Shown: positions 870-16,214 of the stretch, one piece after another
Position numbering within the stretch: the stretch's first letter is position 1
How the letters are laid out: every line of letters begins with the position of its first letter
Source of the DNA: Candidatus Thorarchaeota archaeon
GTDB taxonomy: Archaea; Asgardarchaeota; Thorarchaeia; Thorarchaeales; Thorarchaeaceae
NCBI GenBank assembly: GCA_003345595.1
Contig: PRDI01000036.1
Span: 1-16,214 of the forward strand
Length of the DNA: 16,214 nucleotides
Direction of reading: 5' to 3'
The notes under the pieces: model-generated
What the model saw: only the letters and a program-made list of their open reading frames with translations
What the model was told of the DNA's origin: nothing
Database searches by the model: none
Made by a program: the position numbers and the translations under genes

Positions 870-924
870 ATGGATACGCTCCTTTTTGGACAGCAGCCCG
901 GGCTGACCACATAAAGATGTTCTT

Positions 925-2139
925 CTAGAACCTGGGGCTGATGTATCGTGCGGCACTTAGCAAAGCGATCATCGTGCGAGGGTTGGCCAAGAGACCCGCG
1001 ATAGTTGTACCCTGCATGTCCATGTCTCCCTCTCTCTTCACAGTGTCAGTCAGGCTCAGTTCGTCCGCATTCTTTACTAGTGAGTCTAGTCCCCGGTCCG
1101 AGAAAGAAGATATCGCCCGTTGAGCGAGATACATCGCTCTCATTTGTCCCAGTAGAAGAGAGCGCCAGCTGGTTTCATAACGTCCCAGAGAACGTGCAGA
1201 AGCGTCCCTCTCGGAAACAGCAAGCGCGGCTGTCTTGCCTGCAATCTTGCCACTGATGCCCCCAAATACTACACCTCCCCCGGTGGTTGCTTTTACCATT
1301 CCAGCTGCGTCTCCAACAACGACAAGACCGGACATGAACGTCTTCTTAACGGGTAAACCGACGAGGACTGTTCCACCGATTCCCCGCAGCACAGATGCCT
1401 TCACCAGCTTTCCACTGATAATGGGATGATGTCGCATGACTGCCTCCAGTCGGGGCTTCGACTTGAAGTCAGATGCAAGGCCGACTCTTGCTCGGCCGTC
1501 GCCCAATGGGATAATCCAAGCGAAGAAACCAGGTGCTGTTTGTCTGCCATAGTACATTTCGACTAGATCATCATCAACATCGGCTCCCTGAACCTCGTAC
1601 TGATATGCAGGGTATTTGCTGGTCCTATGAATCATTGGCAGTCCTACCGACCCTGAAAGCCTACCCTGCACCCCCTCTGCGTCGATAGTCACGATTGCCT
1701 TTCTCTGTACCACCGCACCGTCTTCGAGTGTTTCCACTCCAACAACAGACCCATCATGAGTCTTCAAGGCGCGCACCTTGACTCCTGTGATAATAGATGC
1801 GTGTGCCTGCACCGCTCGTTCGGCAAGCCACGCATCAAACTTGCGCCTGTCGACGACGACTGCCTCATGACGGCCACGCTCAACCAAGAGCGACCGGCCA
1901 GATGGCGCATAGATTCTCGCTGCGCGTACAGTGTTCTGAATTACCTGTTGTGGAGGTTCCAGTCCTAGTATCTTGAGCCCCGACAGACTGAGAAGCCCAG
2001 CACAGTGGTCGGGCTCGCCTACCTTTGGGTGTTCCTCGAGCACAGCCACGTCATGCCGTCGAGCTGCAATCGTCCATGCTGTCAGCAACCCTGCTGGCCC
2101 GGCGCCAATCACAACTGCATCGTGGTCGAGAGTCTTCAT
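925..2139 (-). CDS. Geranylgeranyl reductase family FAD-dependent oxidoreductase (digeranylgeranylglycerophospholipid reductase-like)
   Basis: DAVVIGAGPAG FAD-binding motif just after ATG 2139; HCAG, APGFFAWIIP and VVGDAAG motifs. The ORF-track extension to 2352 overlaps pth2 and is unlikely to be translated. Confidence 0.88.
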   Translation of the reverse strand: MKTLDHDAVVIGAGPAGLLTAWTIAARRHDVAVLEEHPKVGEPDHCAGLLSLSGLKILGLEPPQQVIQNTVRAARIYAPSGRSLLVERGRHEAVVVDRRKFDAWLAERAVQAHASIITGVKVRALKTHDGSVVGVETLEDGAVVQRKAIVTIDAEGVQGRLSGSVGLPMIHRTSKYPAYQYEVQGADVDDDLVEMYYGRQTAPGFFAWIIPLGDGRARVGLASDFKSKPRLEAVMRHHPIISGKLVKASVLRGIGGTVLVGLPVKKTFMSGLVVVGDAAGMVKATTGGGVVFGGISGKIAGKTAALAVSERDASARSLGRYETSWRSLLLGQMRAMYLAQRAISSFSDRGLDSLVKNADELSLTDTVKREGDMDMQGTTIAGLLANPRTMIALLSAARYISPRF

Positions 2140-2164
2140 CCGTCTAGACGAGTGAACTGCCACC

Positions 2165-2171
2165 TTTTTAT
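2165..2171. promoter_or_regulatory. Candidate TATA element in the 66-bp divergent GGR/pth2 spacer
   Basis: TTTTTAT (ATAAAAA on minus) lies about 26-35 bp from both start codons. Confidence 0.4.
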
Positions 2172-2205
2172 CTGTCGTTTCACCAGACTGGCCTGTGACT
2201 ACCGG

Positions 2206-2586
2206 ATGGCGGCCAGCATAGATCAGAGATCGTTCAAATACAAGCAAGTCATTGCAGTGCGAACCGACCTTGACATGAGCAGGGGCAAGATTGCAGTGCA
2301 GGTGGCACATGGTGCTGTGAGTGCTGCGGAACGGGCAAGAATGATCCGTCATGAAATATGGAAAGCATGGATGGACGAGGGACAGAAGAAGGTGGCTGTC
2401 AAGGTCGGATCCGAGAGTGAGCTTCTTGAGCTGAGACGAGTGGCCGTTGCCAACAGGCTTCCAAACGCTCTGATCCGTGATGCTGGGATGACCGAGCTCC
2501 CGCCTGGCACGATAACAGTGTTGGGGATAGGTCCCGGACCTGCGGTCGAAGTTGACAAGGTGACTGGCAGTCTGAAACTGTTGTGA
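2206..2586 (+). CDS. pth2: Peptidyl-tRNA hydrolase Pth2
   Basis: KQVIAVRTDLDMSRGKIAVQVAHGA, WMDEGQKKVAVK, IRDAGMTELPPGTITVLGIGP, VDKVTGSLKLL; ATG at 2206. Confidence 0.96.
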   Translation: MAASIDQRSFKYKQVIAVRTDLDMSRGKIAVQVAHGAVSAAERARMIRHEIWKAWMDEGQKKVAVKVGSESELLELRRVAVANRLPNALIRDAGMTELPPGTITVLGIGPGPAVEVDKVTGSLKLL

Positions 2587-2596
2587 GGGACTCCGA

Positions 2597-3949
2597 ATGC
2601 TACCTGCACATCCACTCGAACAGCGGGTGGGTATGGAGTTCTATTGCACCGATTCGCCCGGACTCGGAGGAAGACTCAGAGAGAGGTTTGAAGACTTCAT
2701 CGTTGAAGAGATAACACCCGAAGGGTCCGTCCTATCATTAGGGGACTGGTCCAGTGAACCAGTTTCAGAAGCACAACTGGCTGCTTCCGTGACAGGTGAA
2801 CGCTCCAAGTACGTCAAGTTCACACTTCAAAAGATGGGGCTCTCCACGCTTGACGCCGCGGGCATCATTTCCGCTGCTCTGAAAATCCCGCGATACTTGG
2901 TCACCTACGCTGGTCTGAAGGATAAGCGCGCCATGACAGTGCAAGCGATGTCAGTGTCAAGACAGGCGTCTGTAGCACTAGGTGGTCTTCGCCTCTCAAG
3001 AATCGTGCTGAGAGATTTGGAGTATGTTCGGCGTCCTGTACAAGTGGGCGACCTGTGGGGCAATCGTTTCACTCTGTTGTTGAAGAACATGACAGTTGAC
3101 TGCAACGCAGGGTGTGAGATGGTAGAGTCGTTCAAGGGGCGCTCGATATTGAACTACTTCGGCATACAACGTTTCGGTGTGACCCAGCCCTCCACACTCT
3201 TGGCTGGAAAGGCGCTCATAAAGAGGGACTACGAAAGCGCGGTCCGACGGATAGTCGCAGCAGCAAGCATCTCTGAAGAAGATACGCCCACCAACGTAGG
3301 TGAAGGGTCGAGTCCAGACACAGAGATCACGGAGAGCATGCTTGATCGGGTCTCTACCGGCGCAAGATATGAACGAAGCGTCATACAACATCTCATCAAA
3401 CACCCGGGCGACTACCAGAAAGCAATGACCAGAATTCCGCCACGCATTCTTACGCTTCTGGTCCATTCATATCAGAGCTACCTGTTCAATCGACTCCTTA
3501 GTGAGCGCGTGAGGTCCGGTTCCTCAATAGACCAGCCGGAGATTGGGGATTTCATAATCCAGCTGGACGAGACGCACTCAGGACGAGACTCATGGCTGTA
3601 TACAACTGAGAGGACTCTTGAGGAACGGCGGACAATGGTACGTTCAGGTCGCTATGGTCTCGCAGCGCCGGTACCCGGATACTCCACAAAGCTGCCACCA
3701 TCAAGGCAATCAGACTACCTCAGAAGTATACTAAGTGCTGAGGGTGTGGCTCTTGTCGACTTCAGGAACCCAGAGTCGAGAGCGCTGGACTCGCCCGGTG
3801 GTCTTCATCTTGTTTCAATGGAGCCTTCGAATCTCTGTGCAGAATGCACAGAAAACAGTCTCAGACTACAGTTCAGCCTCAGAAAGGGCTCATATGCCAC
3901 TGTCTTTCTCCGCGAGCTGATGAAGGGTGATCCCAGGGACTTAATCTAG
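2597..3949 (+). CDS. truD: tRNA pseudouridine(13) synthase TruD
   Basis: EDFIVEE, YAGLKDKRAMTVQ (catalytic Asp), GDLWGNRF, NYFGIQRFG, LRKGSYATVFLRELMK; pth2-truD tandem is a common archaeal arrangement. Confidence 0.95.
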   Translation: MLPAHPLEQRVGMEFYCTDSPGLGGRLRERFEDFIVEEITPEGSVLSLGDWSSEPVSEAQLAASVTGERSKYVKFTLQKMGLSTLDAAGIISAALKIPRYLVTYAGLKDKRAMTVQAMSVSRQASVALGGLRLSRIVLRDLEYVRRPVQVGDLWGNRFTLLLKNMTVDCNAGCEMVESFKGRSILNYFGIQRFGVTQPSTLLAGKALIKRDYESAVRRIVAAASISEEDTPTNVGEGSSPDTEITESMLDRVSTGARYERSVIQHLIKHPGDYQKAMTRIPPRILTLLVHSYQSYLFNRLLSERVRSGSSIDQPEIGDFIIQLDETHSGRDSWLYTTERTLEERRTMVRSGRYGLAAPVPGYSTKLPPSRQSDYLRSILSAEGVALVDFRNPESRALDSPGGLHLVSMEPSNLCAECTENSLRLQFSLRKGSYATVFLRELMKGDPRDLI

Positions 3950-4530
3950 CGTTTCGGCTGCTTCTGCGTGAAGCTCTTCATCCTTTCCTCGAAAACATCG
4001 GATGGTTTCTCCTCTGTCTTCTTGGTTTCCTCCTGATACTGGAAAAGTACCGACTCTCCGACTGCTGCTGACGCGATTAGTCTGAGCTCTTCAAGAGAGT
4101 ATGGAATCCTAGACTTGTCTTCCGATCGGAGTACGACTATGTTCTCTCTTGTTCTGTCGGGCAGGAAGAGACTGTTGACGCCAAGCTCGACCGCGGGATG
4201 TATCAGTTCTTTTACTACGCTGCGCAGGCTTAGTGGGCCCTCGATTATGAGGACTCTTCCAAATGCCTTGCCCATCTCGTCCATGAGTTCCTTCTCAGAC
4301 AGTAGAAGGTCTCTCCCCTTCTTCTTGACAATCAGGACGAGTCTGTCTGCCACACGCAGCGCCCGCAAAAGACTGAGGTCCCCGATGGCTGGGAACTGTT
4401 TCTGACGTTCCAAGAGCCATTTGCAGAAGTCTACATCGAACTGTGTGATCTCACCCTTGTCCAGCTTCTCTTGACAACTGGGGCAGAGCATATCAGACTC
4501 AACATCGAATACACAAACCGGCAGACGCAT
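3946..4530 (-). CDS. Archaeal NusA-like transcription factor paralogue (NusA2 type, N-terminal Cys cluster plus KH-like domains)
   Basis: N-terminus MRLPVCVFDVESDMLCPSCQEKLDKGEITQFDV and later ELIHPAVELGVNSLFLPD resemble the archaeal NusA-like family. Confidence 0.8.
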   Translation of the reverse strand: MRLPVCVFDVESDMLCPSCQEKLDKGEITQFDVDFCKWLLERQKQFPAIGDLSLLRALRVADRLVLIVKKKGRDLLLSEKELMDEMGKAFGRVLIIEGPLSLRSVVKELIHPAVELGVNSLFLPDRTRENIVVLRSEDKSRIPYSLEELRLIASAAVGESVLFQYQEETKKTEEKPSDVFEERMKSFTQKQPKR

Positions 4531-4605
4531 CCACGCAATCCCTCGCCTCTAGAGCGCTAGCGGTGGCCGAGCTCCGAGCGAGATTGTACATCAAAGCATA
4601 CAGGA

Positions 4606-4917
4606 TTATCGAGCGAGAGTTATGTCTATCGTGGATACGTTCAGGTCGCTACCCTTGTCTGTTTGAACGGCAGTAGTCCCAATCAGGATAGTCTTGACGT
4701 GAAGATCGGGGATGAACCTGTGGCGCGTTATCTCTGCGACGTCCACAGCCCTGCTGATCAATCGTCCTCTTGCCTTAATCACAACCTCTGATGCTCCTTT
4801 GTTGAAGAGGGTGACGCAGGCCAAGACGTAGCTCATGACGTTTTTCGCGCCAACCAGTATGGTTGATTCGGGCTTGCCTTTGGTAACTGACCTGCTTTCT
4901 AACTTCTCCTCTGCCAC
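4606..4917 (-). CDS. albA: DNA/RNA-binding protein Alba
   Basis: [15 protein letters not shown]...[24 protein letters not shown]...NVSTIDITL. Start uncertain: GTG 4917 follows SD-like GGTGGAG; ATG 4926 and GTG 4932 are alternatives. Confidence 0.92.
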
Positions 4918-5246
4918 CCGAAGCATCTCCACCAGCTGTCACTCGTTCAGGCATAGGCGCTAAGCCAAGTGCCTCTAATATTGGTTTCGATTATCATTGT
5001 GGCAAACACGAGAATTATGCCATCTGCAGACCAAGGACATTTCCAAGTCCGATTCTCTGGGGGTTAAGGGTTCAGCAGAGGGCAGAAATCATGCACAATA
5101 ACGCATGTTCCATTTGACAGTCCTGTCGTATGTGATTGCTCAGACAAGCGCCTATCACTACCTTCACGTCTTTCTCCGACAGTAAGGCTGCCCTTCAGCA
5201 AGGCTTTTCTTCAATAGGTCTGGCCCTGATGTGGAAGTTCTACGCG

Positions 5247-6512
5247 ATGGCGAAACTGACCTTTCTTGGCTCTTGCAGAGAAATAGGACGTTCGGCTTTC
5301 TGTCTAGAGGAACACGGGGAGAGCGTTCTGGTGGATCAAGGTGTCAAGTTTGTTGACAACCCCGTGTTTCCAGACCGTATTTCAGCGACTGGGCTTCAGG
5401 GAGTCGCTCTTACTCATGCGCATCTAGATCACTCTGGTGGAATACCACTGATCCTCTCGCGGAATGACGTGTCACTGTTCTGTACTCCAGCCACGCGTGA
5501 CCTGAGCACTCTACTCGTCGAAGACATGTTTCAGATAGCCAAGGCCCGGCTTCCTTTTGCTCACAAGGACATAGCCCTTGTTCATCGTCGGTGTCAATCA
5601 ACATCATATGAGGAAACAATCCCTCTGGGTCGAGAGTTTGAGCTCACACTCTTCAATGCGGGTCACATCCCTGGTAGCGCAATGGTTTCGGTTAGAGCAA
5701 ATGGCAAGAGAATTCTCTTCACAGGTGACTTCAACTCCATCGAAACGCAGCTGAACGCCGGCGCAAGGAAGAACCTGCCAAAGCATGACATAGTCGTGAC
5801 CGAGAGTACGTATTCTCAGCGACTCAATGCAAAGAGAGAGGAGATTGAGGCCGAGTTCATCCAGTCGGTCCTCGAAGCCCTAGAGCGCGGAGGAACTGTT
5901 CTCATTCCTGCGTTCGCTGTAGGACGTAGCCAAGAGATCATGTGCATATTCGAAAAATGTAACCTGCCTCAGAAGTACACGGTCTATGTAGACGGACTGG
6001 CCAGAATGGTGAACGAGGTCGTAGCCAAGCATCCCGGATATATAGCGTCACCCCAGTCATTTGAGAGGGCGCTCAAGAGAACAGAGAGTATAGTCAGTGA
6101 CAAGGACCGCCTACGTGCAGTCAAGAATGGCGGTGTGATCATATCACCCGCAGGGATGCTCAAGGGTGGCCCCTCTCATATGTACTTCAAAATGCTGTAT
6201 GATGACAGCAAGAGCTCAATAGTCTTGGTAAGCTTCCAGATACCCGGGACTCCCGGTGCAGAACTGCTTGCGAAGAAGAAGATGACAGTGGGCAACAGAA
6301 CATACGACGTTGCAGCAGATGTCAGATTTCATCACTTGAGCAGTCACTCGGACTCCGCAGGACTGATGGACGTTCTCGAAAAGATACCTGGTGACCCACA
6401 GTTCTACTGTGTCCATGGCGAACCTGACTCATGCGATGCACTGGCTAAGAAACTGAATGACATCGGCAGACAGGCACATGTACCTCAGCTGAATGAATCG
6501 ATTCAGTTCTAG
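5247..6512 (+). CDS. Beta-CASP metallo-beta-lactamase ribonuclease without N-terminal KH domains (aCPSF2-like)
   Basis: MAKLTFLGSCREIGRS start; THAHLDHSG, AGHIPGS, FTGDF, ESTY, PAFAVGRSQE, SSHSD, VHGE motifs; 421 aa from ATG 5247. Confidence 0.88.
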   Translation: MAKLTFLGSCREIGRSAFCLEEHGESVLVDQGVKFVDNPVFPDRISATGLQGVALTHAHLDHSGGIPLILSRNDVSLFCTPATRDLSTLLVEDMFQIAKARLPFAHKDIALVHRRCQSTSYEETIPLGREFELTLFNAGHIPGSAMVSVRANGKRILFTGDFNSIETQLNAGARKNLPKHDIVVTESTYSQRLNAKREEIEAEFIQSVLEALERGGTVLIPAFAVGRSQEIMCIFEKCNLPQKYTVYVDGLARMVNEVVAKHPGYIASPQSFERALKRTESIVSDKDRLRAVKNGGVIISPAGMLKGGPSHMYFKMLYDDSKSSIVLVSFQIPGTPGAELLAKKKMTVGNRTYDVAADVRFHHLSSHSDSAGLMDVLEKIPGDPQFYCVHGEPDSCDALAKKLNDIGRQAHVPQLNESIQF

Positions 6513-6518
6513 TAGACA

Positions 6519-6731
6519 CTACTCTTCTGCCTTGGGCTTTGCCTCAACGACTTGGCACTTCACCTGCTGGAGGATAGTTTCGGCCTGCTGGGGCTCAACA
6601 ATCAGTGTGTATAGGTATCTTCCCGTTCGGAGCTTAAGCTTGACCTGATCACTGCTCCTCTTCACGCGACACTCGGTTGCGCTCTCAGTCATCTCAAGGA
6701 ACTTCGCCACATCAGTTATCTGTCTTGGCAT
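6519..6731 (-). CDS. rpl38e: 50S ribosomal protein L38e
   Basis: MPRQITDVAKFLE...VKLKLRTGRYLYTL matches the eL38 signature (KxKxRxxRYLYTL); 70 aa from ATG 6731. The 179-aa ORF-track version is over-extended. Confidence 0.92.
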   Translation of the reverse strand: MPRQITDVAKFLEMTESATECRVKRSSDQVKLKLRTGRYLYTLIVEPQQAETILQQVKCQVVEAKPKAEE

Positions 6732-6819
6732 TTGTAGGCCTCTGATTGCATTCTTCTGAGCCGTGACTAGGAGCGACTCGGCTCGCTCCTCCCTTTCAGA
6801 GTTTCCCATGGCATTCACA

Positions 6820-6826
6820 TTATAAG
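6820..6826 (-). promoter_or_regulatory. Candidate TATA box for rpl38e
   Basis: CTTATAA on minus about 90 bp upstream of the ATG, preceded by CATT, the same CATTCTTA context as the tRNA-Val promoter. Confidence 0.45.
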
Positions 6827-7039
6827 AATGTCGGAATGTGATGCTAGACTCATACACACGCCTGAAACCCAGCACATTGTGGCTGACCTGCAATGCTGTC
6901 AGTTGCTTTAGGAGTGATTCAGAAACAGGACAGAAACTTCGCCCCATTAGAGTTGTCAACAAGCACTCCAACGTAGTCAGATGAGCGCAATGCCATGTGC
7001 TGGGCGAATCCGCGTCCTCTATCATCCGTTGTATGGCCG

Positions 7040-7058
7040 AACAACCAAGAAGAATCAA
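7040..7058 (-). terminator. Possible T-rich archaeal terminator after tRNA-Val
   Basis: TTGATTCTTCTTGGTTGTT immediately follows the CCA end. Confidence 0.3.
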
Positions 7059-7075
7059 TGGTGGGCAGGAGGGGA

Positions 7076-7106
7076 TTTTCTACGCACAGGGTGGTCCTGC
7101 GCTGTT
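7076..7106 (-). other. tRNA intron 2 (31 nt) at position 59/60 (T-loop), relaxed bulge-helix-bulge
   Basis: T-stem as outer helix; central TTCG/AGAA (3 Watson-Crick pairs plus G-A); bulges AG^A and AA^T; inner AC/GT then GCGCAGG/CCTGTGC stem. Removal restores a 7-nt T-loop; the junction could be 58/59 instead. Confidence 0.82.
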
Positions 7107-7121
7107 CTCGAACCCCCGACA

Positions 7122-7153
7122 TAGGCGGGCAGACGCATCGCAGGCAGCTGCCA
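7122..7153 (-). other. tRNA intron 1 (32 nt) at position 44/45, strict bulge-helix-bulge
   Basis: AC/GT outer helix; GGCG/CGCC 4-bp central helix; 3-nt bulges GA^T and TA^T; GGCAG/CTGCC inner helix. Removal restores a 5-nt variable loop ATGTC. Confidence 0.88.
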
Positions 7154-7224
7154 TCCGCCGTGTGAAGGCGGTATCATAACCGGACTAGATCACCTGCCCT
7201 TGGCCCGCAGGTCTGTCTGCTGTG

Positions 7225-7232
7225 TATTTAAG
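7225..7232 (-). promoter_or_regulatory. TATA box of tRNA-Val
   Basis: CTTAAATA 26-33 bp upstream of the first tRNA base. Confidence 0.65.
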
Positions 7233-7685
7233 AATGATGGCGGGGTGATGAGGGATCTTGAGTGGGGTATCTCTTTGACACACGATCCATGTCTTCCCAC
7301 TTGAAACCTAGGGTTTCCATCGCAGATGTCATGGGCAAGCTTCTCGTTCGATGTGGGTTCGTGATAGTCTGCCATCGACTTGGCACATCTCCGTCCCCGT
7401 TCCGCCTCTAATCTTCCATCCCGAACCTTGGACTCAAGACATTGATGCATGACGCTGGCTCTCGGGAGCAGGTGGTGTCAATGGCTAGATAACGCCATGC
7501 GGACGTTTGCCATGACCGCAATACACGGCGACCCAAGTCATGATCGTATAGACAAGTATGACAAATGCAAGGCCAACGTCCATGGGCAGACATGTATTGG
7601 AGTTTCAGTGTCAGAATGCTGGAAACTGCAAAAGGATAGATAGTGCTTCCTATTGCATGGTTTAGTTCCACGCATCACAGGGAAA

Positions 7686-7844
7686 CTATTTCTTCCCACG
7701 CCTCTTGGGCCTGAGGTCGTCCGACTTGCACTTCCTGCACTTCTTGGCCTTGAGGGGGTTGGTTGCACCGCAGTAGCGGCACACAGACTTGTACAGCAAA
7801 TAGTGCTGAGCCAGCCTGCGCTTCTCGATGTCAGATATGGGCAT
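7686..7844 (-). CDS. rpl40e: 50S ribosomal protein L40e
   Basis: Manual translation (52 aa, below ORF cutoff): MPISDIEKRRLAQHYLLYKSVCRYCGATNPLKAKKCRKCKSDDLRPKRRGKK; CxxC...CRKC zinc finger and LRPK signature. Confidence 0.95.
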   Translation of the reverse strand: MPISDIEKRRLAQHYLLYKSVCRYCGATNPLKAKKCRKCKSDDLRPKRRGKK

Positions 7845-7918
7845 GTCAAGGTCCTCATTAAGTGCTTGACGGACTAGGGTTTCCCGTGAGCCCGCTCAGG
7901 CTTCGGAGCGTGGTTGTG

Positions 7919-7926
7919 TTTTAAAA
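7919..7926 (-). promoter_or_regulatory. Candidate TATA box for rpl40e
   Basis: TTTTAAAA about 75 bp upstream of the ATG, just after the sucD stop. Confidence 0.4.
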
Positions 7927-7946
7927 GTTATGCTCCAAACACAGCA

Positions 7947-8819
7947 CTACTTCAAGGCCTTTCTGAGTAGCTCGGCGACTTGACTGGGCCTCTCTGCAAC
8001 GGCGACACCTGCATCCTTCAACGCCTTAATCTTCGCTTCTGCCGTTCCCGTACTTCCACTGATGATGGCTCCTGCATGACCCATCCTCTTCCCGGGAGGC
8101 GCTGTCCTCCCTGCAATGAAAGCCACCACTGGCAGGTCAAACCCCTTTGAAACGAATGAAGCCGCACGTTCTTCTGCGTCTCCGCCAATCTCGCCCACGA
8201 GGACGACTGCTCTTGTTGCCTTGTCGTTCCTGAACAGCTTTAGACCCTCTGTGGGTGTCAGCCCGACACACGGGTCTCCACCCAGCCCAATTGCCGTCGA
8301 GATTCCGATCCCGGCTAGCGTCATTCCGGCGGCGATCTCGTAAGTCAGTGTTCCACTACGTGACATGAGCCCTACATTGCCGGGAGAGAACACATGACCG
8401 GGCATTATTCCAACCTTCTGTTTCACGATTGGAGTGATTATCCCGGGCGTATTGGGGCCGATGATGGTGATACCCTTCTGGGCTGCCACATGGATGACCC
8501 TGATTTCATCCTTCACGGGGAGGTGTTCCGTGATCACTACCACAGGATTGAGGCCCTCTGATATGGCCTCAAGGGCGGCGTCAGCCGCGTAGGCGGCCGG
8601 GATGAATATTATTGAGGCTGTTGCATCATGTTCTCGCTTGGCTTCTCTGACTGTGTCGTACACGGGAACACCATTCACATCGGTCCCGCCCTTGCCCGGC
8701 GACGTACCCGCAACAACCTTCGTCCCATACTTCAGCATTGAGGCAGTATGGAATGTCCCCTGCGAACCAGTGATGCCCTGCACTATCACTCTTGTCTTCT
8801 TATCTACCAAGACCGCCAT
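7947..8819 (-). CDS. sucD: Succinyl-CoA synthetase alpha subunit
   Basis: VIVQGITGSQGTFH, IIGPNTPGII, SRSGTLTYE, GEIGG, KRMGHAGAII (phospho-His). Confidence 0.96.
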   Translation of the reverse strand: MAVLVDKKTRVIVQGITGSQGTFHTASMLKYGTKVVAGTSPGKGGTDVNGVPVYDTVREAKREHDATASIIFIPAAYAADAALEAISEGLNPVVVITEHLPVKDEIRVIHVAAQKGITIIGPNTPGIITPIVKQKVGIMPGHVFSPGNVGLMSRSGTLTYEIAAGMTLAGIGISTAIGLGGDPCVGLTPTEGLKLFRNDKATRAVVLVGEIGGDAEERAASFVSKGFDLPVVAFIAGRTAPPGKRMGHAGAIISGSTGTAEAKIKALKDAGVAVAERPSQVAELLRKALK

Positions 8820-9965
8820 CTACGATACCTCCTTTGTCAATTGGACGACACGCTCAGCAGCCTCCTCCATGGTCTTCAGGAATGGAATGCCAGCCTTGCT
8901 GAGTATCTCCTGCCCCTGCTCCTCATTGGTACCAACCATCCTTATGACTGTGGGAATGCTGAGTCCCTTTTCTTCGCGGGCAGCGACTATGCCCTTGGCG
9001 ACCTCATCGCATCTGGTTATACCACCCATGATATTGACGAGGACTGCCTTGACCTTTGGATACATCAGCGCAATCTCGATACCTTTCTTGACTCGCTCAG
9101 CATCTGCTCCGCCTCCTAAGTCAAGGAATGTGCTAGCCTTTCCTCCGTGCAGGGCCACTGCGTCTAGTGTAGCCATGGTCAATCCTGCACCATTGCAGAT
9201 GCATGCTATGTCACCATCGAGTTCAACATAGGCCATGTCATGTTCGGCAGCGAGCTTCTCCCTTGCGTTCTGCTCGACGGGCTCTCTTCTCAGTCCGTCT
9301 GTCAGCTTCTTGTGACGATACAGGGCACTATCGTCCACGTTGAGTCGCGCGTCCGCAGCTAGCAGTCGTCCTTCCTTTGTGAGGATGAGTGGGTTAATCT
9401 CAGTCAATTCAGCATCATAAGAGTCTGCAACACTCCACAGACTGAGAATCATGCTCGTCAGCGTGTTCAGCATCTTGCCCCTGAAACCCATCGCAATGGC
9501 CATCTCGCGCGCCTCGTACGTCTGAAACCCTAGCAAGGGATCGACGTACATCTTGACTATCTTCTCAGGGCTCCGAACAGCGAGTTCTTCGATGGACATG
9601 CCGCCAGCCGAGCTGCCTATGACCACATATTTGCGTTCAGTCCGATCCACAGTAATTCCAAGGTAGATCTCCTGTTGGATGTCCAGCTTCTCCTCCACGA
9701 GTACTGCCTCAACGGGCAAGTCATTGATTCTCATCGCTAGTATCTCTCTTGCCGCGTTCCCAGCTTCGTCTGGAGTGTTGGCGAACTTTATTCCTCCGGC
9801 TTTGCCCCTTTTTCCTGCAAACACTTGTGCTTTGACCGCGACTGGTTTGCCAATCTCTCTTGCGCGTGTCTTTGCCTCTTCAGGAGTCTTAGCCACATTT
9901 CCCAGCGGCGTTGGCAGATTAAAGGCACGAAAGATATCCTTTGCCTCAAATTCGAGAAGCTTCAT
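8820..9965 (-). CDS. sucC: Succinyl-CoA synthetase beta subunit (ATP-grasp)
   Basis: MKLLEFEAK, KAQVFAGKRGKAGGIK, EINPL, NGAGLTMATLD, FLDLGGGA, GGITRCDEVA. The stop abuts the sucD ATG (TAGATG) with an internal GGAGG SD. GTG 9977 is an alternative start. Confidence 0.96.
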   Translation of the reverse strand: MKLLEFEAKDIFRAFNLPTPLGNVAKTPEEAKTRAREIGKPVAVKAQVFAGKRGKAGGIKFANTPDEAGNAAREILAMRINDLPVEAVLVEEKLDIQQEIYLGITVDRTERKYVVIGSSAGGMSIEELAVRSPEKIVKMYVDPLLGFQTYEAREMAIAMGFRGKMLNTLTSMILSLWSVADSYDAELTEINPLILTKEGRLLAADARLNVDDSALYRHKKLTDGLRREPVEQNAREKLAAEHDMAYVELDGDIACICNGAGLTMATLDAVALHGGKASTFLDLGGGADAERVKKGIEIALMYPKVKAVLVNIMGGITRCDEVAKGIVAAREEKGLSIPTVIRMVGTNEEQGQEILSKAGIPFLKTMEEAAERVVQLTKEVS

Positions 9966-10043
9966 GGGTTCCACCACGCACTGAGAAGGCAGAATCAGTC
10001 GCCTTCCCGGGCATCAACGGTCCAATGTCATGGAGTAAAAAAC

Positions 10044-12314
10044 TTAGCTGCTCTCCGTGAGCATAGCTGTCAGTTCGCTCTGCAGTCGAAAGATCTCCTT
10101 GTGCAATCCGTTTCGTTTGTCCGCTGCCAAGAGCCTGAGAAGAATGGAGTTCACATAGTGTAGCTCCTCAAGAATGTTCTCAACTATGCCTGGCATGTCT
10201 TTTTCGCTCCGTATTGCCTGCTCGATGCTGTCTGCCGGAACTGAGTCGATGACCCGTTTGACCAAGTCCTCTGGTAGGTCTGTCCTAGCCACGGTCACAC
10301 CCACAAGAAGGTCTCTCACTCTGCCACTCCCTCTTGCGACTGCTTTCATCACCTTCTTGGCGTCTCGAACGGGCACTCCAAGAACTGCCACGCTGGCACC
10401 CAGATCGGTGCATCTGACGGCCTTTCCGTCGCGTATGATCAGGTCGTCATGCTCCATATCATCAAGCACCCGGAGACCGCGTAGAGCCTGCCCTATCACG
10501 GATGCTGCATATGGTCTGGTTTCCTCACTCTTGAGTGCGAATGAACAGAACTTGACTAGATGCTTGCAGAGCCTGTGGTTCCTTATTCCTTGATACTTCC
10601 AAGACTCACAGGAACATGACACTCCCTCGGCCGGCCTGAGTGTCACGTAGTGCCATAGCTCTCTTGTGCCGCTATGAATGAGTCCCTCAATTTTGAAGGG
10701 AGTGACTGACACAAATTTCACTCTTGAATCGGATATCTCGTCGGCGCGCTTGACCGTAGACCTAGTGGTACGAAGAGAGATGATATCACTGACGGCAGAA
10801 TCATCAAGGGAAACCATTGATTCGTGGGTGATCCCCTTAGCCCGGTTTGTTGCTGCCCAGTATGTGCGGCTGATGATTGCATACGGGTCATCCGTTACTG
10901 CACTCCTTCCACACAGCTGGCTGATGACCAAGTCCTGGATGTTCTCGGGATCGTCCATGCAGCTGTCTACTTCCCCGAGCCTCGGACTGATATTACCATC
11001 TCTGTCTTTGGTGAAGAACTTGTCCAAGACTCGCGTACGTTCTGACTCCTTGTCAACAACGACAATCGCGAAAGCCTCATTGTCAACCCCTGCCCTGCCT
11101 GCTGACTGCAAGACGTCATTAAGCTGCCACTCAGAAAGCATAGTCAGGTCCTCGGTTCCGACGACGTCTTTGCTGACATCTTTCATGAACACCCCGACCA
11201 GAAACACCACAGTCGCCTTGATACCACTGGCGATCGCGAATCTTGTGGGCATGACAACTACCGGCAGAAGCCCCTCCTCCCATGCAGACGACACTTCCCT
11301 TCTTTGGGCTCTGGAAACTCCTTCGTGCAGAAAGGCGACACCTCTCAGGACAGCACTTGCAAGGCGAGAGGTCACTTCGCATTTTGAATACTTGTCCCGC
11401 ACTTGGTTTGAGAGAATCCTGAGGTCATCTTGATGAGAGGGTGTCAATCTGAGGTCAAGGGGTGAGGGCCTGTCCACTCCGGACGTTCCTGTCAAATGAG
11501 CTGCTAATTCCTCGCAAGAAGCTATGTCAGGACACAGTATCACTATCTGTCCGCGACGGTAATGCACGAACTCCGTGATGTCTGCCAACGACTCACGCAC
11601 GCTACTGAATGCCTTCACGCTGAAGATACGCTTCACCTCGGGCTTCGTGTCTTCCACAATGTCTGCATGCAGCCAGAGGCTCAAGTCCTTGAGATCTGCA
11701 ACAGGCGGGCATGTGGCTATGTACTGTGTCCCTTGACCGTGACCCATTAGATTCACAAGCGTCGTTTCAAGTGTCGCGCCAATACCTGGCTGCCCAATCA
11801 AGTCGAGACGCTCGATGATGATACATTGGAGGCCTTCCAGCAACTCAGGATGAACTCTCAGCGCTATGTCAAGGGAACCATAGGTTCCAACCACGACACG
11901 CCCGCTCTTCCACTCCTGACTTATGGCAGTACGCCTACGTATGGCCTCAGCTCCCTCAACCCCAAGCCGTCTGCACTTCTGTATCAAAGAGGAGTATCTC
12001 TTTTCAGCCTGGTGTGCATTTGGACAGAGAACCAACGCTCTAGCCTTGTAGTCAGTTAGAAGCCTGTTCAGAGCTGCAATCTCTGCTATCTGATACGCCT
12101 CATCATAATCATATGTGACAAGCAGCTGGCTTGCGCCTCTGAGCACGCCCTTCTCCAATGTAGCAGTCTGAAATCCTGACAGTTTGACAAGACCTTGTTT
12201 CCTGAGAAGCTCCAGCAGACGCGGCGAAGTTTGCTCAAGCTCGAGCTCTCTCAAAGTACTCAATTGGTCTAAGCCCCAAGCGGTCAGATGCGCGAGGAGA
12301 TGAGAAGTTATCAT
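10044..12314 (-). CDS. Hel308/Ski2-like SF2 helicase homologue with degenerate ATPase motifs and an inserted SWIM zinc finger (probable pseudo-helicase)
   Basis: Q-motif-like GLVKLSGFQ; VVVGTYGSLD (Ib); GVAFLHEGVS; QSAGRAG (VI-like); CTDLG winged-helix end. Walker A position reads TYDYDEAY and Walker B reads IIIERLD. SWIM motif CSC-x12-CKH. TTG 12263 is an alternative start. Confidence 0.8.
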   Translation of the reverse strand: MITSHLLAHLTAWGLDQLSTLRELELEQTSPRLLELLRKQGLVKLSGFQTATLEKGVLRGASQLLVTYDYDEAYQIAEIAALNRLLTDYKARALVLCPNAHQAEKRYSSLIQKCRRLGVEGAEAIRRRTAISQEWKSGRVVVGTYGSLDIALRVHPELLEGLQCIIIERLDLIGQPGIGATLETTLVNLMGHGQGTQYIATCPPVADLKDLSLWLHADIVEDTKPEVKRIFSVKAFSSVRESLADITEFVHYRRGQIVILCPDIASCEELAAHLTGTSGVDRPSPLDLRLTPSHQDDLRILSNQVRDKYSKCEVTSRLASAVLRGVAFLHEGVSRAQRREVSSAWEEGLLPVVVMPTRFAIASGIKATVVFLVGVFMKDVSKDVVGTEDLTMLSEWQLNDVLQSAGRAGVDNEAFAIVVVDKESERTRVLDKFFTKDRDGNISPRLGEVDSCMDDPENIQDLVISQLCGRSAVTDDPYAIISRTYWAATNRAKGITHESMVSLDDSAVSDIISLRTTRSTVKRADEISDSRVKFVSVTPFKIEGLIHSGTRELWHYVTLRPAEGVSCSCESWKYQGIRNHRLCKHLVKFCSFALKSEETRPYAASVIGQALRGLRVLDDMEHDDLIIRDGKAVRCTDLGASVAVLGVPVRDAKKVMKAVARGSGRVRDLLVGVTVARTDLPEDLVKRVIDSVPADSIEQAIRSEKDMPGIVENILEELHYVNSILLRLLAADKRNGLHKEIFRLQSELTAMLTESS

Positions 12315-12462
12315 ATCCTATTATCTTTTTGCAAAACAGTCATAAACTCACTTCAGCAGATCTCAGTGGCCGATGCAGGGTGCCGCATGGGCATGAGATC
12401 TTTCGGCTGAACAACAAACATTTAATCCGGGTTCCACCCAAGGTGGTGCGCGAGTGGTTGCT

Positions 12463-13128
12463 ATGGAGATTACCAGGTCTGTCAAGTGCAAGGAACTGAA
12501 GAAGGCTGATGTTGTAGACTCGACCGGTCGCAAAGTCGGTCACATCGGTGATATGACCTTTGGGTTCAATGGAACACTGAAACTATCGCAGTTCATACTT
12601 GCAGGTCCCGCATGGGAGGAGTTCTTGGAGTCAATCAAGGTCCGACCAGACCGCGACCCTGTCTTTGACGCGACACTCATCAAGAAGATGGGAGATAAGG
12701 TCTACCTCGACACGACTGCAAACAGTCTGAAGACGACGCTCGACAAGGGTGCCATTGGTCCGGGTGAGCTCCGGTTCTCCAAGCTGGAGAAAATGGACAT
12801 AGTCGACAAGGACGGCGTGAAGGTAGGCCGGACAATCGATGTCCATTTCGAGAAGGATGGATCCTGTTCTCTGATAGTCGGAGGTGGATTCATAGAGGAG
12901 AAGCTCGAAGCTGCGGGAATCAAGGAAGATGTCGACATAATAGTCCCAGGAGAAGTAATATCGACAATAGGTGACAGGGTGAAGCTGCTGGTTTCCAAAG
13001 ACACGCTTGGAACGACCATGGATGATGCTCTGAAGAAGAGGAAACCAGAAACCAAGAAGGCAAAGGATTCCCGGGCAGTACAACGCGATGTGACCAAGGT
13101 TCAGCTGTTCACGCAACGGCCGTTCTAA
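12463..13128 (+). CDS. Tandem (two-domain) PRC-barrel protein
   Basis: Two repeats of the PRC N-terminal pattern: KELKKADVVDSTGRKVGHIGDMTF and SKLEKMDIVDKDGVKVGRTIDVHF, ending IKKMGDKVYL and ISTIGDRVKL respectively. Confidence 0.82.
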   Translation: MEITRSVKCKELKKADVVDSTGRKVGHIGDMTFGFNGTLKLSQFILAGPAWEEFLESIKVRPDRDPVFDATLIKKMGDKVYLDTTANSLKTTLDKGAIGPGELRFSKLEKMDIVDKDGVKVGRTIDVHFEKDGSCSLIVGGGFIEEKLEAAGIKEDVDIIVPGEVISTIGDRVKLLVSKDTLGTTMDDALKKRKPETKKAKDSRAVQRDVTKVQLFTQRPF

Positions 13129-13348
13129 TGTACGAAGTCATATGTAGCGCTGTTGACCGATAGTGATGCTCCATCCTCGCCGAGTCTTGGCTGCCATGCT
13201 GGCGCGAAGCCGACAGAACTCTCGTAGGCGAGCAGAACATACCGGGTATTGCGCTCCTAAGACATACAGATAAAAGCAGTATCAGGGGTAGCACCGCGAG
13301 TGACTCAACTGAAGGGCGTTACAGTATCAGCCCCCCGATGACCGAGGC

Positions 13349-14098
13349 ATGGAATGGATGGCATTCGTAGCAACTAGAGAATCCGTCTTTGAGATAATAC
13401 TGAAGGATGGCTTCAAAATCGAACCCGGGTCCACGTTCATCTGTGGCTTTCACGGACTTGGCGAGGTAGGTTTTCTCAGCACAGCTCATCTCACACGAAC
13501 GCTGAATGCCGAACGGGTGGGCTTCATCAAGAGTGACATGCTACCCTTGTTTGTGTCCATGGAGAATGATCGCCTCGTTCTACCTTTTGAGATATACTCC
13601 TATGCTGAGAAGAACATGATCTTCTTTGTCCCACGTTTCCAGCCGCATCAGTCTGAGCAATGGTCATGGATAGACAGGCTGGCAAAGTGGATTATCGATT
13701 GCAGATTCTCAGAGATACTCCTACTTGGAGGTCTGGACTCAAGCTTCAAAGAAGACAATGAGGACATGCGGTGCGTTCCTACTACCGCATATAGACCGAT
13801 GCTGGAAAAGTGGTCAGTACCACTCCTAGAGGAGGGTCTCTTCGTAGCAGGCCCGCTGGCCCTCCTTCTTGCAGAGCTTGAAATGCGGGACGTGCCTGCG
13901 ATAGGTCTTCTCACTTATGCCACACGCGGACGACCTGACCCAAGGTCTGCAGCGACCATGCTGGGAAGAATCAACCAGGTCTATGACATCAAGGCTGACG
14001 TGGACCAGCTCCTTGAAGAGAGCAAGGAGATTGAGCGGCTCGAGAAAATGCGCAAGAGCATCGAGTCTGACGACAGATCATCTGACATGTTTGTCTAG
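13349..14098 (+). CDS. PAC2-family proteasome assembly chaperone-like protein (PbaA/PbaB type)
   Basis: FICGFHGLGEVGFLS, PFEIY, LLGGLD, GPLALLL, PDPRSAA, DVDQLLEESKEIE and C-terminal MFV. ATG 13358 is an alternative start. Confidence 0.88.
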   Translation: MEWMAFVATRESVFEIILKDGFKIEPGSTFICGFHGLGEVGFLSTAHLTRTLNAERVGFIKSDMLPLFVSMENDRLVLPFEIYSYAEKNMIFFVPRFQPHQSEQWSWIDRLAKWIIDCRFSEILLLGGLDSSFKEDNEDMRCVPTTAYRPMLEKWSVPLLEEGLFVAGPLALLLAELEMRDVPAIGLLTYATRGRPDPRSAATMLGRINQVYDIKADVDQLLEESKEIERLEKMRKSIESDDRSSDMFV

Positions 14099-14637
14099 CC
14101 GAACCGTCTGATATACCAGCCAACGTCCATCACGTTCTTCGCCACTAGCTCCTTGGGGCTCAGCCTGTGCAGCTTGTCTGTGTCAACAGACATAACTGCA
14201 AGTCCGAGGCACTCACCGTTTCCATTCATCACAAGCACGTACTGTCCTCTCTTCAGACCTTGTCCTGTTTCCTTGACGGAGTGCTTCAAGATGCTCTTGC
14301 CGTATGTCAACGCTTCTGCTCCCTCTCTAGAAACGACAATCAGGTTCTTGGTTAGACCCACCAGTCGGTCTAGGACCGAGATCGCGAATGTAAACCTGCC
14401 CGAAGAGAGGTCACCAACCCATGTCCCTAGAGATTGTGGCGTGAACGGGCCGAAATCATTCTCAAAGTGGTCCATCCAATCCTTTGGCACTAAGTAGAAT
14501 GACCTCGATGTTTCATGCTCCAGAGTGACGGGCAGCAGGCCCCCAACAAGCTTGTCTGTCACGCCCTCGCCGAAGCCGCCATCAATCTGTTGTTTGGCCA
14601 AATCCCAATCATGAGGGTCTGCCAGTTCTGGCTTCAA
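14095..14637 (-). CDS. Nip7-like PUA-domain ribosome biogenesis protein (UPF0113)
   Basis: VVSREGAEALTYGKSI...VLVMNGNGECLGLA...KNVMDVGWYIRR. TTG 14637 follows GGAG/AAGGA; GTG 14658 is an alternative start. Confidence 0.82.
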   Translation of the reverse strand: MKPELADPHDWDLAKQQIDGGFGEGVTDKLVGGLLPVTLEHETSRSFYLVPKDWMDHFENDFGPFTPQSLGTWVGDLSSGRFTFAISVLDRLVGLTKNLIVVSREGAEALTYGKSILKHSVKETGQGLKRGQYVLVMNGNGECLGLAVMSVDTDKLHRLSPKELVAKNVMDVGWYIRRFG

Positions 14638-14722
14638 TGTCCTTTCATCTCCATGCACTGTATCCTTCGGGGAGAATTGCTGTCTGGACTGACAGTGCAG
14701 GCTGCCTTGGGCACCCCCATAC

Positions 14723-15628
14723 TCAGCCCTCCTTTGTCATCCTGCATATGAAGAAGCCCTCTGTCTTATGCTCATGCGGGAGAAGTCGTCTTGCACGCGC
14801 CAAGGATTTGTCAAGCTGAATGCCGAATGGTCGAACATAGCCTTGGCTTCCGAAGTCTATGGCTATGTCATCAATCTTCATCTCTGGTTGTTTCTTGAGG
14901 AAGTCATCGATGACAAACTCATTCTCTTCAGGGGCTATCGAGCATGTGGAGTAGACAAGGCTTCCTCCTCCAGCAAGAACCTTGGCAGCTGAGCTGAGCA
15001 TATCTTGCTGTCTGTCGGCGCAGTACCTGATGTCTGCCATACTCCTACTCGTCTTTCTGCTTGGGTCCAATGGAATGAGTCCTTCTCCAGAGCACGGTGC
15101 ATCAAGCAGTATTCGATTCGGGTGGAATGGGAGGTGTTCCAGCCTTCTGGCATCTCCTCTCAAGACGAGAGTGTTGTTCACTCCACATCTGAGGATATTG
15201 CCTTGAAGACTCCTGATTCGCACCCTGTCCTCATCGATAGAGACTATCATGCCTGAGTTCTCCATCATCTGTGCCATGTGCGTGGTCTTTCCGCCTGGGG
15301 CAGCAGCGATATCCATGACCATTTCTCCCGGCTGAGGATTGAGCACTCTGCTGACGGTCATAGATGGCACTCCTTGTATGTAATAGAAACCCAGCATATG
15401 CTCAAAGAGAGAACCGGGCGAAATGGAACCGAAATCTGCATAGTACCCCTCCGCAAGCCAAGGGACCCCCTCCAGCACAACACCCTTTGACTGTAGGCGT
15501 TTAACTAGGAGATCGATGGGAGTCTTTAGAGTGTTGACTCTGATGGAAGTCCTAATTGGGCGCTCACAGGCCTCAAGGAATCGAAGCGTTTCGGCTTCTC
15601 CCCATAGGGCCAAGTAGCGTTCAATCAT
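14723..15628 (-). CDS. RsmB/NOL1/NOP2/Sun family RNA m5C methyltransferase
   Basis: SIRVNTLK, GFYYIQ, DIAAAPGGKT (motif I), LLDAPCSGEG (IV), VYSTCSI (VI), EGFFIC. The true start may lie upstream, near 15694 (see findings). Confidence 0.93.
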   Translation of the reverse strand: MIERYLALWGEAETLRFLEACERPIRTSIRVNTLKTPIDLLVKRLQSKGVVLEGVPWLAEGYYADFGSISPGSLFEHMLGFYYIQGVPSMTVSRVLNPQPGEMVMDIAAAPGGKTTHMAQMMENSGMIVSIDEDRVRIRSLQGNILRCGVNNTLVLRGDARRLEHLPFHPNRILLDAPCSGEGLIPLDPSRKTSRSMADIRYCADRQQDMLSSAAKVLAGGGSLVYSTCSIAPEENEFVIDDFLKKQPEMKIDDIAIDFGSQGYVRPFGIQLDKSLARARRLLPHEHKTEGFFICRMTKEG

Positions 15629-15739
15629 GTACTGTTGATACCCGAATCTTGCCGCAAGTTCCTTTGCCCTCAGCCGGAGGTCTTTCGTTGTCGTAGTCCC
15701 CTAGTCCTCCAAGTTGCCGTAGATGCCACTAGTCAAGAG

Positions 15740-16214
15740 CTACCCACTCTCAGTCCGTTTCTCGAGCAACGCTCTCAGTTCCTGCAAATCAGGTCCAATG
15801 ACATGAGGGCCGGGTGTCAATCGGTCTGCTGTGCCCAGATCCTTGAAACCTGAACCGGTGATGGGCACAACAATCCTGTCAGACCTATCAATCAGTCCCT
15901 CTTCAAGGAGAGGTTGTAGTCCTGCTAACGCTGCGACGCCGCTGGGTTCGGCGAACACTCCCTCCGTTCTTGCCAGCATCACAAGACAATCTTCTATGGA
16001 CCTGTCAGACACTTCCACTGCTATCCCCTTTGCGAGTTTCAAGTATCGGAGCGCAGCATCTCCATCCCAGGGATATGGATCGGCGAGGCCGCCTGCGACA
16101 GTGTCGTTGGAGTCCCAAGGTCTGATATGCAAGGGATCGCTGTCTTCACGAAATGCTCTGACTATAGGCGCACATCCTTCAGGCTGAACGACCACAGGCT
16201 TCGGCAGGTCGTCT
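15740..16214 (-). CDS. thrC: Threonine synthase (PLP-dependent, fold type II), C-terminal part; 5' end beyond the window
   Basis: LPKPVVVQPEGCAPIVRAF, TVAGGL, VSDRSI, LARTEGVFAEPSGVAALAGL, VVPITGSGFKD; frame open to the window edge. Confidence 0.85.
   Translation of the reverse strand, partial: DDLPKPVVVQPEGCAPIVRAFREDSDPLHIRPWDSNDTVAGGLADPYPWDGDAALRYLKLAKGIAVEVSDRSIEDCLVMLARTEGVFAEPSGVAALAGLQPLLEEGLIDRSDRIVVPITGSGFKDLGTADRLTPGPHVIGPDLQELRALLEKRTESG

Follow-up and report, generated by a model that had tools for sequence, protein, structure and literature searches.

Pseudo-enzymes that keep the shape of a motor without its chemistry are well known in eukaryotes, among them the inactive cassette of Brr2 and Utp25, and to our knowledge are hardly documented in archaea. 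Among prokaryotes, the Asgard archaea are most closely related to eukaryotes. In Brr2, ASCC3 and Slh1, the inactive cassette forms a tandem fusion with an active one and carries a Sec63 unit (ratchet, HhH and FN3 domains), and that of Brr2 still binds ATP. Protein docking is the task of the SWIM modules of Shu2/Sws1 and ZSWIM8. Utp25/Def has kept the superfamily 2 (SF2) fold, lost the catalytic motifs and been put to use as a scaffold (PMC9539457), and in Mtr4 and Ski2 an arch is inserted in the winged helix (PMC10946056). Here we describe a Hel308-like protein of Candidatus Thorarchaeota archaeon, encoded on the minus strand at 10044-12314 of the window, that is, the whole stretch of 16,214 nucleotides that was analysed (assembly GCA_003345595.1, contig PRDI01000036.1, positions 1 to 16,214). 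Nearly all of the residues needed for ATP binding and hydrolysis are absent from it, and the ATPase motifs have been replaced across its entire family. We consider it likely that this pseudo-helicase is functional but ATP-dead, that it derives from a SWIM-bearing Hel308-like helicase of the Asgard archaea, and that it acts as a passive binding or adaptor platform.

A preliminary description of this DNA, made from the sequence alone, had proposed a catalytically dead Hel308-like protein kept as an intact open reading frame (ORF) of 756 codons, and the frame indeed translates without interruption into 756 residues. The former ATPase motifs were placed with HMMER against Hjm and Hel308 in the PDB, and with MAFFT against the Hel308 (P0122) and the active paralogue (P0123) of the same genome. 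Residue numbers below refer to the 756-residue product:

10044-12314, minus strand: pseudo-helicase ORF, 756 codons and a stop codon
12168-12173, minus strand: Q motif, retained as F48-Q49, with FQ in 113/113 rows of the family alignment
12093-12116, minus strand: former Walker A or P-loop, residues 67-74, TYDYDEAY in place of PTxSGKT (HMMER, MAFFT)
11802-11813, minus strand: former Walker B or DExH, residues 168-171, ERLD, with the catalytic Glu turned into Arg (HMMER, MAFFT)
11703-11711, minus strand: former motif III (SAT), now CPP, C202-P203-P204 (alignments)
11223-11252, minus strand: altered motif V, MPTRFAIASG against TTTLAAGxN (alignments)
11088-11117, minus strand: altered motif VI, DVLQSAGRAG against QxxGRAGR (alignments)

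The Walker A and Walker B readings of the preliminary description, TYDYDEAY and ERLD, thus hold to the exact coordinate. Its reading of SAT as ATC, on the other hand, was some two residues out of register, as SAT aligns with CPP. Motif VI is degenerate, as had been said, but here too the register was about two residues off, and the last Arg is not the one that is missing: D400, Q403 and S404 take the place of the Gln, the Gly and the first Arg, whereas the second Arg, R407, is kept and near-invariant. These substitutions are shared by the family set of 113 homologues at 50-93% identity. At the P-loop position the variants follow T[YH]DY[DNEG]EA[YH], with GK[ST] in none of the 113; the six GK[ST] strings that do occur in N-terminal regions of the family all lie away from that position. 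Motif II reads [DE]R[LI]D (DRLD in 90/113 rows, ERLD in 17/113), motif III [CSTL]PP and motif VI AGR[RA]G. The residues of the rebuilt cleft, D69, E72, R169, D171, P203 and P204, are near-invariant rather than drifting. Profile searches reflect this state of the motor, as neither Pfam DEAD nor Helicase_C matches the pseudo-helicase, and the NCBIfam Hel308 models do so weakly (E 1e-24 to 7e-22, 77-87 bits, below the family cut-offs of 887-1216). In the PDB, Hjm and Hel308 match best by sequence (E 6e-17 to 5e-11).

In a six-frame search over 150 other genomes of the same phylum, the pseudo-helicase was found in all 26 of the other genomes of the same GTDB family, at 47-94% identity, one match being a fragment at a contig end. 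Outside that family, one genome of the same order included, the search gave no match above 27% identity, and clustering at 50% reduces the family to one full-length representative plus fragments. Compared with a 94%-identical orthologue from a genome of the same genus, the ratio of non-synonymous to synonymous substitution (dN/dS) is 0.07 (dS 0.40, dN 0.028). The loss of the motifs is old and fixed, and the gene is under strong purifying selection. Because of this ratio, the presence in 26/26 genomes and the conservation of the substituted motifs in 113 homologues, the pseudo-helicase is not a case of recent decay, the check set in the preliminary description, for a substituted P-loop conserved in orthologues at a dN/dS below 1, having come out positive. 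What emerges is a whole Asgard protein family in which nearly every ATPase residue has been replaced, and which is nevertheless present in every family genome searched.

An AlphaFold2 model, built from an alignment of 140 sequences, reached a predicted local distance difference test score (pLDDT) of 85 and a predicted template modelling score (pTM) of 0.84. Its top structural matches in Foldseek and VIA-align are Hjm, Hel308, the PolQ helicase domain and the Brr2 cassettes, with a best Foldseek E of 6.6e-26. The best VIA match, Hjm (2zj5), has a Z of 29.5 and a root-mean-square deviation of 3.3 over 576 aligned residues, covering 19-755 of the model and 1-655 of the chain; the Brr2 cassettes reach a Z of about 27. 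The predicted fold is that of an SF2 helicase of the Hel308 type, as the preliminary description had assumed, with RecA1, RecA2, a winged helix and a ratchet-type helical domain:

11649-12230, minus strand: RecA-like domain 1, residues ~29-222, with the Q motif and dead motifs I, II and III (HMMER against Hjm 2zj2, AlphaFold2, VIA and Foldseek)
11016-11648, minus strand: RecA-like domain 2, residues ~223-433, with altered motifs V and VI (alignments)
10815-11015, minus strand: winged helix, part 1, residues ~434-500, with a conserved GEVDSxMD (AlphaFold2 secondary structure, alignments)
10527-10814, minus strand: insertion in the winged helix, two or three helices at residues ~501-529 and a SWIM zinc module at ~530-596 (AlphaFold2, alignments, structural matches)
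10371-10526, minus strand: winged helix, part 2, residues ~597-648, the wing and a conserved CTxLG (AlphaFold2, alignments)
10047-10370, minus strand: C-terminal helical domain, the equivalent of Hel308 domain 4 (ratchet), least conserved of all domains (model, alignment)

Since the model aligns to Hjm 1-655, where domain 4 ends, the protein comprises domains 1-4 of Hel308 and lacks domain 5. The lack of a C-terminal HhH domain had already been noted in the preliminary description, and no HHH Pfam model matches the pseudo-helicase, whereas the Hel308 of the same genome matches HHH_5. With Hel308 and Hjm (2zj2/2zj5/2zj8, 2va8, 2p6r; NF040935) the protein has in common the four-domain body and its order, the Q motif, CTxLG in the wing and the HxG that follows motif IV; the pseudo-helicase family, its active relatives and Hel308 all conserve T636 and G639. 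It differs in its low identity of about 18%, in the SWIM insert within the winged helix and in the missing domain 5. In the ratchet helix, moreover, the GD...W motif of the clade has been replaced by PG[IV][IV]EN..EE..Y. The Hel308 body of the preliminary description therefore stands, but the SWIM insertion, the most constrained part of the protein, had been overlooked.

This insertion of about 100 residues separates the initial helices of the winged helix from H3/wing (CTxLG); in the AlphaFold2 model it opens with two or three helices, after which come four strands and two further helices. Four putative zinc ligands, C567-x-C569-x13-C583-x-H585 (10560-10616, minus strand), are invariant in 73/73 sequences of the wider SWIM-bearing clade. 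SWIM is the most conserved domain (mean column entropy 0.65, with 1.1-1.6 in the rest of the protein) and the only basic one (net charge +7, isoelectric point 9.7). It also provides the only Pfam match of the pseudo-helicase, a weak one to SWIM (PF04434) at residues 563-587, with E 0.0057 and 16.6 bits against a gathering threshold of 19.6; among the clade members, 8/22 match this model at E <= 0.01, the best at 1.7e-4. Folded alone, the insert has a pLDDT of 90. When this isolated model was compared with 48,161 representative PDB chains, with no prefilter applied, the best match was ZSWIM8 (9rwz_M; Z 8.2, 89 residues aligned), followed by Shu2 in the Shu1:Shu2 complex (6dex_B; Z 4.6, 90 aligned) and by a next chain at 3.7. 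As such, the insert is predicted to have a SWIM fold, in which beta strands precede a helix that carries the CxH. The CxC-xn-CxH zinc module and the fold of beta-sheet plus helix are common to Shu2/Sws1, ZSWIM8 and the pseudo-helicase; however, the SWIM of the latter sits inside a helicase winged helix, and nothing here links the protein to Rad51 paralogues.

Searches of representatives and genomes brought up a wider set of Asgard proteins of about 700-800 residues that are 19-27% identical to the pseudo-helicase and carry the SWIM insertion at the same place. Most of them have canonical motifs (GKT, DE[IV][HQ], SAT, QxxGRAGRP). A quick LG+G4 tree groups the SWIM-bearing proteins in one clade apart from canonical Hel308, with a Shimodaira-Hasegawa-like approximate likelihood ratio test (SH-aLRT) support of 99, and on this basis the pseudo-helicase descends from that clade and not from canonical Hel308. 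Its own branch has a stem of 1.66 substitutions per site. The nearest neighbours on the tree are partly degenerate forms, all of which keep GKT: the Hod/Promethearchaeota form (GKT, DETY, SSN and SRAGK in motif VI), that of the Ranarchaeia (DDAQ, with DKAGR in motif VI) and that of the Odinarchaeia (EECD or DEFQ, with GRAGN in motif VI and the Arg finger lost). A CxCE[HY]W[KR]F version of SWIM is common to the pseudo-helicases and these partly degenerate Odin, Ran and Hod forms. With members such as P0123 the pseudo-helicase has in common the architecture, the insertion site and the invariant C, C, C and H; most of the clade keeps the motor motifs, the Odin, Ran, Hod and Promethearchaeota forms are partly degenerate, and only the Thorarchaeal family has lost everything. 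As GKT is intact in these nearest relatives while their motifs II, III and VI are altered, a stepwise loss of the motor within one paralogue lineage is suggested. Together with them, the pseudo-helicases form a natural series in which to study the change from helicase to scaffold.

Public records list the dead proteins under 'hypothetical protein'; their active counterparts appear as 'DEAD/DEAH box helicase' in metagenome-assembled genomes of Thor-, Hermod-, Odin-, Ran-, Hod- and Promethearchaeota. The preliminary description was aware of no characterised family of this type, and in the literature that we searched we likewise found no description of either the pseudo-helicase family or the SWIM-bearing Hel308 clade. 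A survey of archaeal Ski2-like proteins makes no mention of SWIM or of degenerate members (PMC10946056), so that the SWIM-bearing clade is flagged here as unmentioned in that classification. In annotation, genes of the pseudo-helicase family should not be named DEAD/DEAH helicases or Hel308.

So how could a helicase without a motor be of use? ATP hydrolysis would be impossible for such a protein, and phosphate binding probably so too. The old nucleotide cleft appears to have been rebuilt with invariant residues of its own, the P-loop having become acidic (D-Y-D-E) and the catalytic Glu an Arg. A putative charge pairing in this cleft, of D69, D71 and E72 with R169 and R407, would probably fix the arrangement of RecA1 and RecA2, and the basic, presumably exposed SWIM module may dock a partner that is itself conserved, be it a protein or a nucleic acid. 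Docking of this kind is suggested by analogy with SWIM in Shu2/Sws1 and ZSWIM8, and with the winged-helix arch by which Mtr4 and Ski2 recruit adaptors.

Several observations must however be taken into account that weigh against a passive platform derived in this manner. The invariant FQ and the retained motif VI Arg leave room for an adenine-containing or metal-bridged ligand in the cleft. The grouping of the pseudo-helicases with the Odin, Ran and Hod forms has an SH-aLRT of only 94 and involves long branches. An approximately unbiased (AU) test of a Thor-specific duplication, which would join the pseudo-helicase clade with the active Thor paralogues, was borderline at p 0.047, for a grouping that was chosen after the tree had been seen, so that this alternative origin is rejected by a narrow margin only. 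Furthermore, the genes flanking the pseudo-helicase gene are mostly of the RNA and ribosome type, with succinyl-CoA synthetase, and not of DNA repair.

A more far-reaching version takes the Thorarchaeal protein as the end point of a motor-to-adaptor conversion within an Asgard Hel308 paralogue lineage, with the Odin, Ran and Hod forms as intermediates, and as a stand-alone inactive Ski2-like cassette that docks its partners via the module inserted in its winged helix. In this complete form we think it a long shot. If true, the pseudo-helicase would be a prokaryotic counterpart of the inactive cassettes of Brr2 and ASCC3, and of the adaptor-recruiting arch of Mtr4 and Ski2, and its role might lie in RNA or ribosome metabolism or in the control of recombination.

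Of the rival explanations, the first is that of an inactive cassette that acts in trans, regulating an active Hel308-type helicase, be it canonical Hel308 or P0123. This continues the 'regulator of the true Hel308' that the preliminary description had inferred and that is, like its nucleic-acid clamp, conjectural. The canonical hel308 whose presence elsewhere in the genome it had proposed to confirm does exist: P0122 (594 bits, with domain 4 and HhH) adjoins MCM on contig C49, and the active SWIM paralogue P0123 lies on contig C50. The dead and active paralogues share their domain plan, the model matches the Brr2 cassettes at the Z of about 27 given above, and in Brr2 and ASCC3 it is likewise the inactive cassette that regulates the active one. 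As in Brr2, ASCC3 and Slh1, a Hel308-type cassette would have ceased to be a motor and become a regulatory or interaction platform, this role being putative for the pseudo-helicase. It is, however, a single cassette of 739-756 residues with a SWIM insert, and has neither HhH nor FN3, nor a P-loop. Pfam Sec63 does not match it, the Sec63 unit being absent, and neither in the window nor at three syntenic loci does a helicase gene lie next to its own; at the loci examined, the dead and active genes are never adjacent or fused. Moreover, the search for P0123-type orthologues drew a blank in about 9 of 41 family genomes, among them two of the same genus (93% and 85% complete), whereas the dead protein was found in 26/26. 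That the pseudo-helicase is kept more consistently than P0123 argues against an obligate partnership between the two, and we rate regulation in trans as unlikely.

P0123 itself is part of a cluster of ten genes on the minus strand of its contig (~42100-56740). The order starts with an XPD/DinG-like helicase and unknowns of 204, 106 and 792 residues, followed by P0123, an unknown of ~490-590 residues, a 252-residue P-loop protein, a 323-residue unknown, a 242-residue Rad51-like protein and a 329-residue XPG-I nuclease, with a RadA paralogue of 376 residues just upstream of the cluster. This arrangement is conserved in another Thorarchaeote, and a related helicase in GCA_019058315.1 has a Rad51-like gene, RadA and an XPG-like gene in its vicinity. 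The parent lineage is thus linked to genes of DNA repair and recombination, its active members occurring with XPD/DinG-like, Rad51-like and XPG-like genes. Within the family the cluster is accessory, and could be a repair or defence module; its 792-residue protein was found in none of the five P0123-lacking genomes that were checked. Rad51-family genes occur only in the operon of the P0123 type, with none in the window or the three syntenic loci. A complex prediction of pseudo-helicase residues 434-756 with the RadA of the same genome returned no answer (score 0.00), and is no evidence either way. In one genome of the same genus, the P0123-type paralogue appears split between two overlapping matches at 602303-604466, with a TGA read through in one of them. 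A frameshift or a pseudogene could account for this, as would fit a dispensable active paralogue.

A second rival makes the pseudo-helicase a scaffold of RNA processing or ribosome biogenesis, in which a motor-less Ski2-like protein docks assembly or RNA-processing factors. It is the neighbourhood of the gene that speaks for this. At 66 bp downstream and on the same strand lie the genes for succinyl-CoA synthetase beta (8820-9977) and alpha (7947-8819), and the further flanks hold PRC-barrel, PAC2, Nip7-like PUA, RsmB/Nop2-like, L38e, beta-CASP RNase, Alba, TruD and Pus10 genes. Three other genomes, at 55-57% protein identity, show the same order but for minor differences, running from RsmB/Nop2-like methyltransferase, Nip7-like PUA and PAC2 over the pseudo-helicase and sucCD to L40e, L38e, beta-CASP RNase, Alba and TruD; two of these three loci have an L40e call, between sucD and L38e, and in the window the interval at ~7190-7900 holds two short ORFs with no Pfam match. 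An RNA- and ribosome-rich neighbourhood is therefore conserved in these genomes, and hints weakly at a role in that direction. Precedents on the eukaryotic side are Utp25, a documented pseudo-helicase of the small-subunit processome (PMC9539457), and the arch of Mtr4 and Ski2, which is also inserted in the winged helix (PMC10946056). Utp25/Def differs from the pseudo-helicase in belonging to the DEAD-box subfamily of SF2, in being eukaryotic and in having no SWIM, with evidence of homology that is limited to the RecA core. The synteny, on the other hand, was seen in three close relatives only and includes metabolic genes, because of which it says little about a common function. In the Hod/Promethearchaeota (P0275) and Odin (P0145) relatives, which are more distant, the neighbourhoods have nothing in common with the window, and genes of the DNA-repair type accompany the active members of the parent clade. 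For these reasons an RNA scaffold has, in our estimation, a slim chance of being correct.

Less probable still, and by some distance from likely, is a cryptic enzyme or ligand sensor, whose cleft would bind an adenine nucleotide that lacks the triphosphate, a metal or a CoA-type cofactor, or would perform a non-canonical NTP hydrolysis. FQ is invariant in 113/113, R407 is kept, the new residues of the cleft are near-invariant, and the gene is directly upstream of sucCD on the same strand, both in the window and in 3/3 other loci. But the Walker A Lys and Thr, the Walker B Asp-Glu, motif III and the motif VI Gln and first Arg are all absent, the acidic P-loop should repel phosphates, and there is no known family with such a site. 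A decaying pseudogene or recently inactivated helicase copy, finally, has the loss of all catalytic motifs as its sole support, and is refuted by the 756 open codons, the dN/dS of 0.07, the 26/26 family genomes and the conserved substituted motifs.

The start of the pseudo-helicase gene deserves a remark. Homologues at 93% and 70% identity are 739 residues long each and share an N-terminus, MSTLRELEL, that corresponds to a TTG at 12263. Residues 1-19 of the 756-residue product have a pLDDT below 50 in the model, and an A/T-rich, TATA-like stretch abuts the upstream ATG at 12314. Because of these three observations the TTG is preferred, and the true product probably has 739 residues. Two ORFs on the plus strand that overlap the gene, 10174-10593 and 10678-11433, were dismissed as spurious because the minus-strand frame is strongly conserved at the protein level. 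PADLOC gave no match for the pseudo-helicase.

Some further observations concern the surroundings. In eukaryotes, Nip7 and Nop2 act as partners during 60S biogenesis. In the window, the Nip7-like UPF0113/PUA gene directly adjoins that of the RsmB/Nop2-type methyltransferase, in a eukaryote-flavoured biogenesis block (13349-15628 and 12454-13128) that also includes a PAC2-type proteasome assembly chaperone and a PRC-barrel gene, the latter divergent from the pseudo-helicase gene. On the contig of the Odin relative (1017-5218), the next gene on the same strand encodes aconitase; like the succinyl-CoA synthetase beside the pseudo-helicase, this is an enzyme of the tricarboxylic acid cycle, which is probably a coincidence. 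The ORF of L38e (6519-7058, minus strand) is listed with 179 residues, of which only 111-165 match L38e, and orthologues in the related loci have 71; probably only its 3' third is the real gene. Lastly, a 458-residue beta-CASP/RMMBL RNase (aCPSF-like; 5136-6512, plus strand) is divergent from Alba (4606-4932, minus strand), and this pair recurs in 3/3 of the syntenic Thorarchaeal loci examined.

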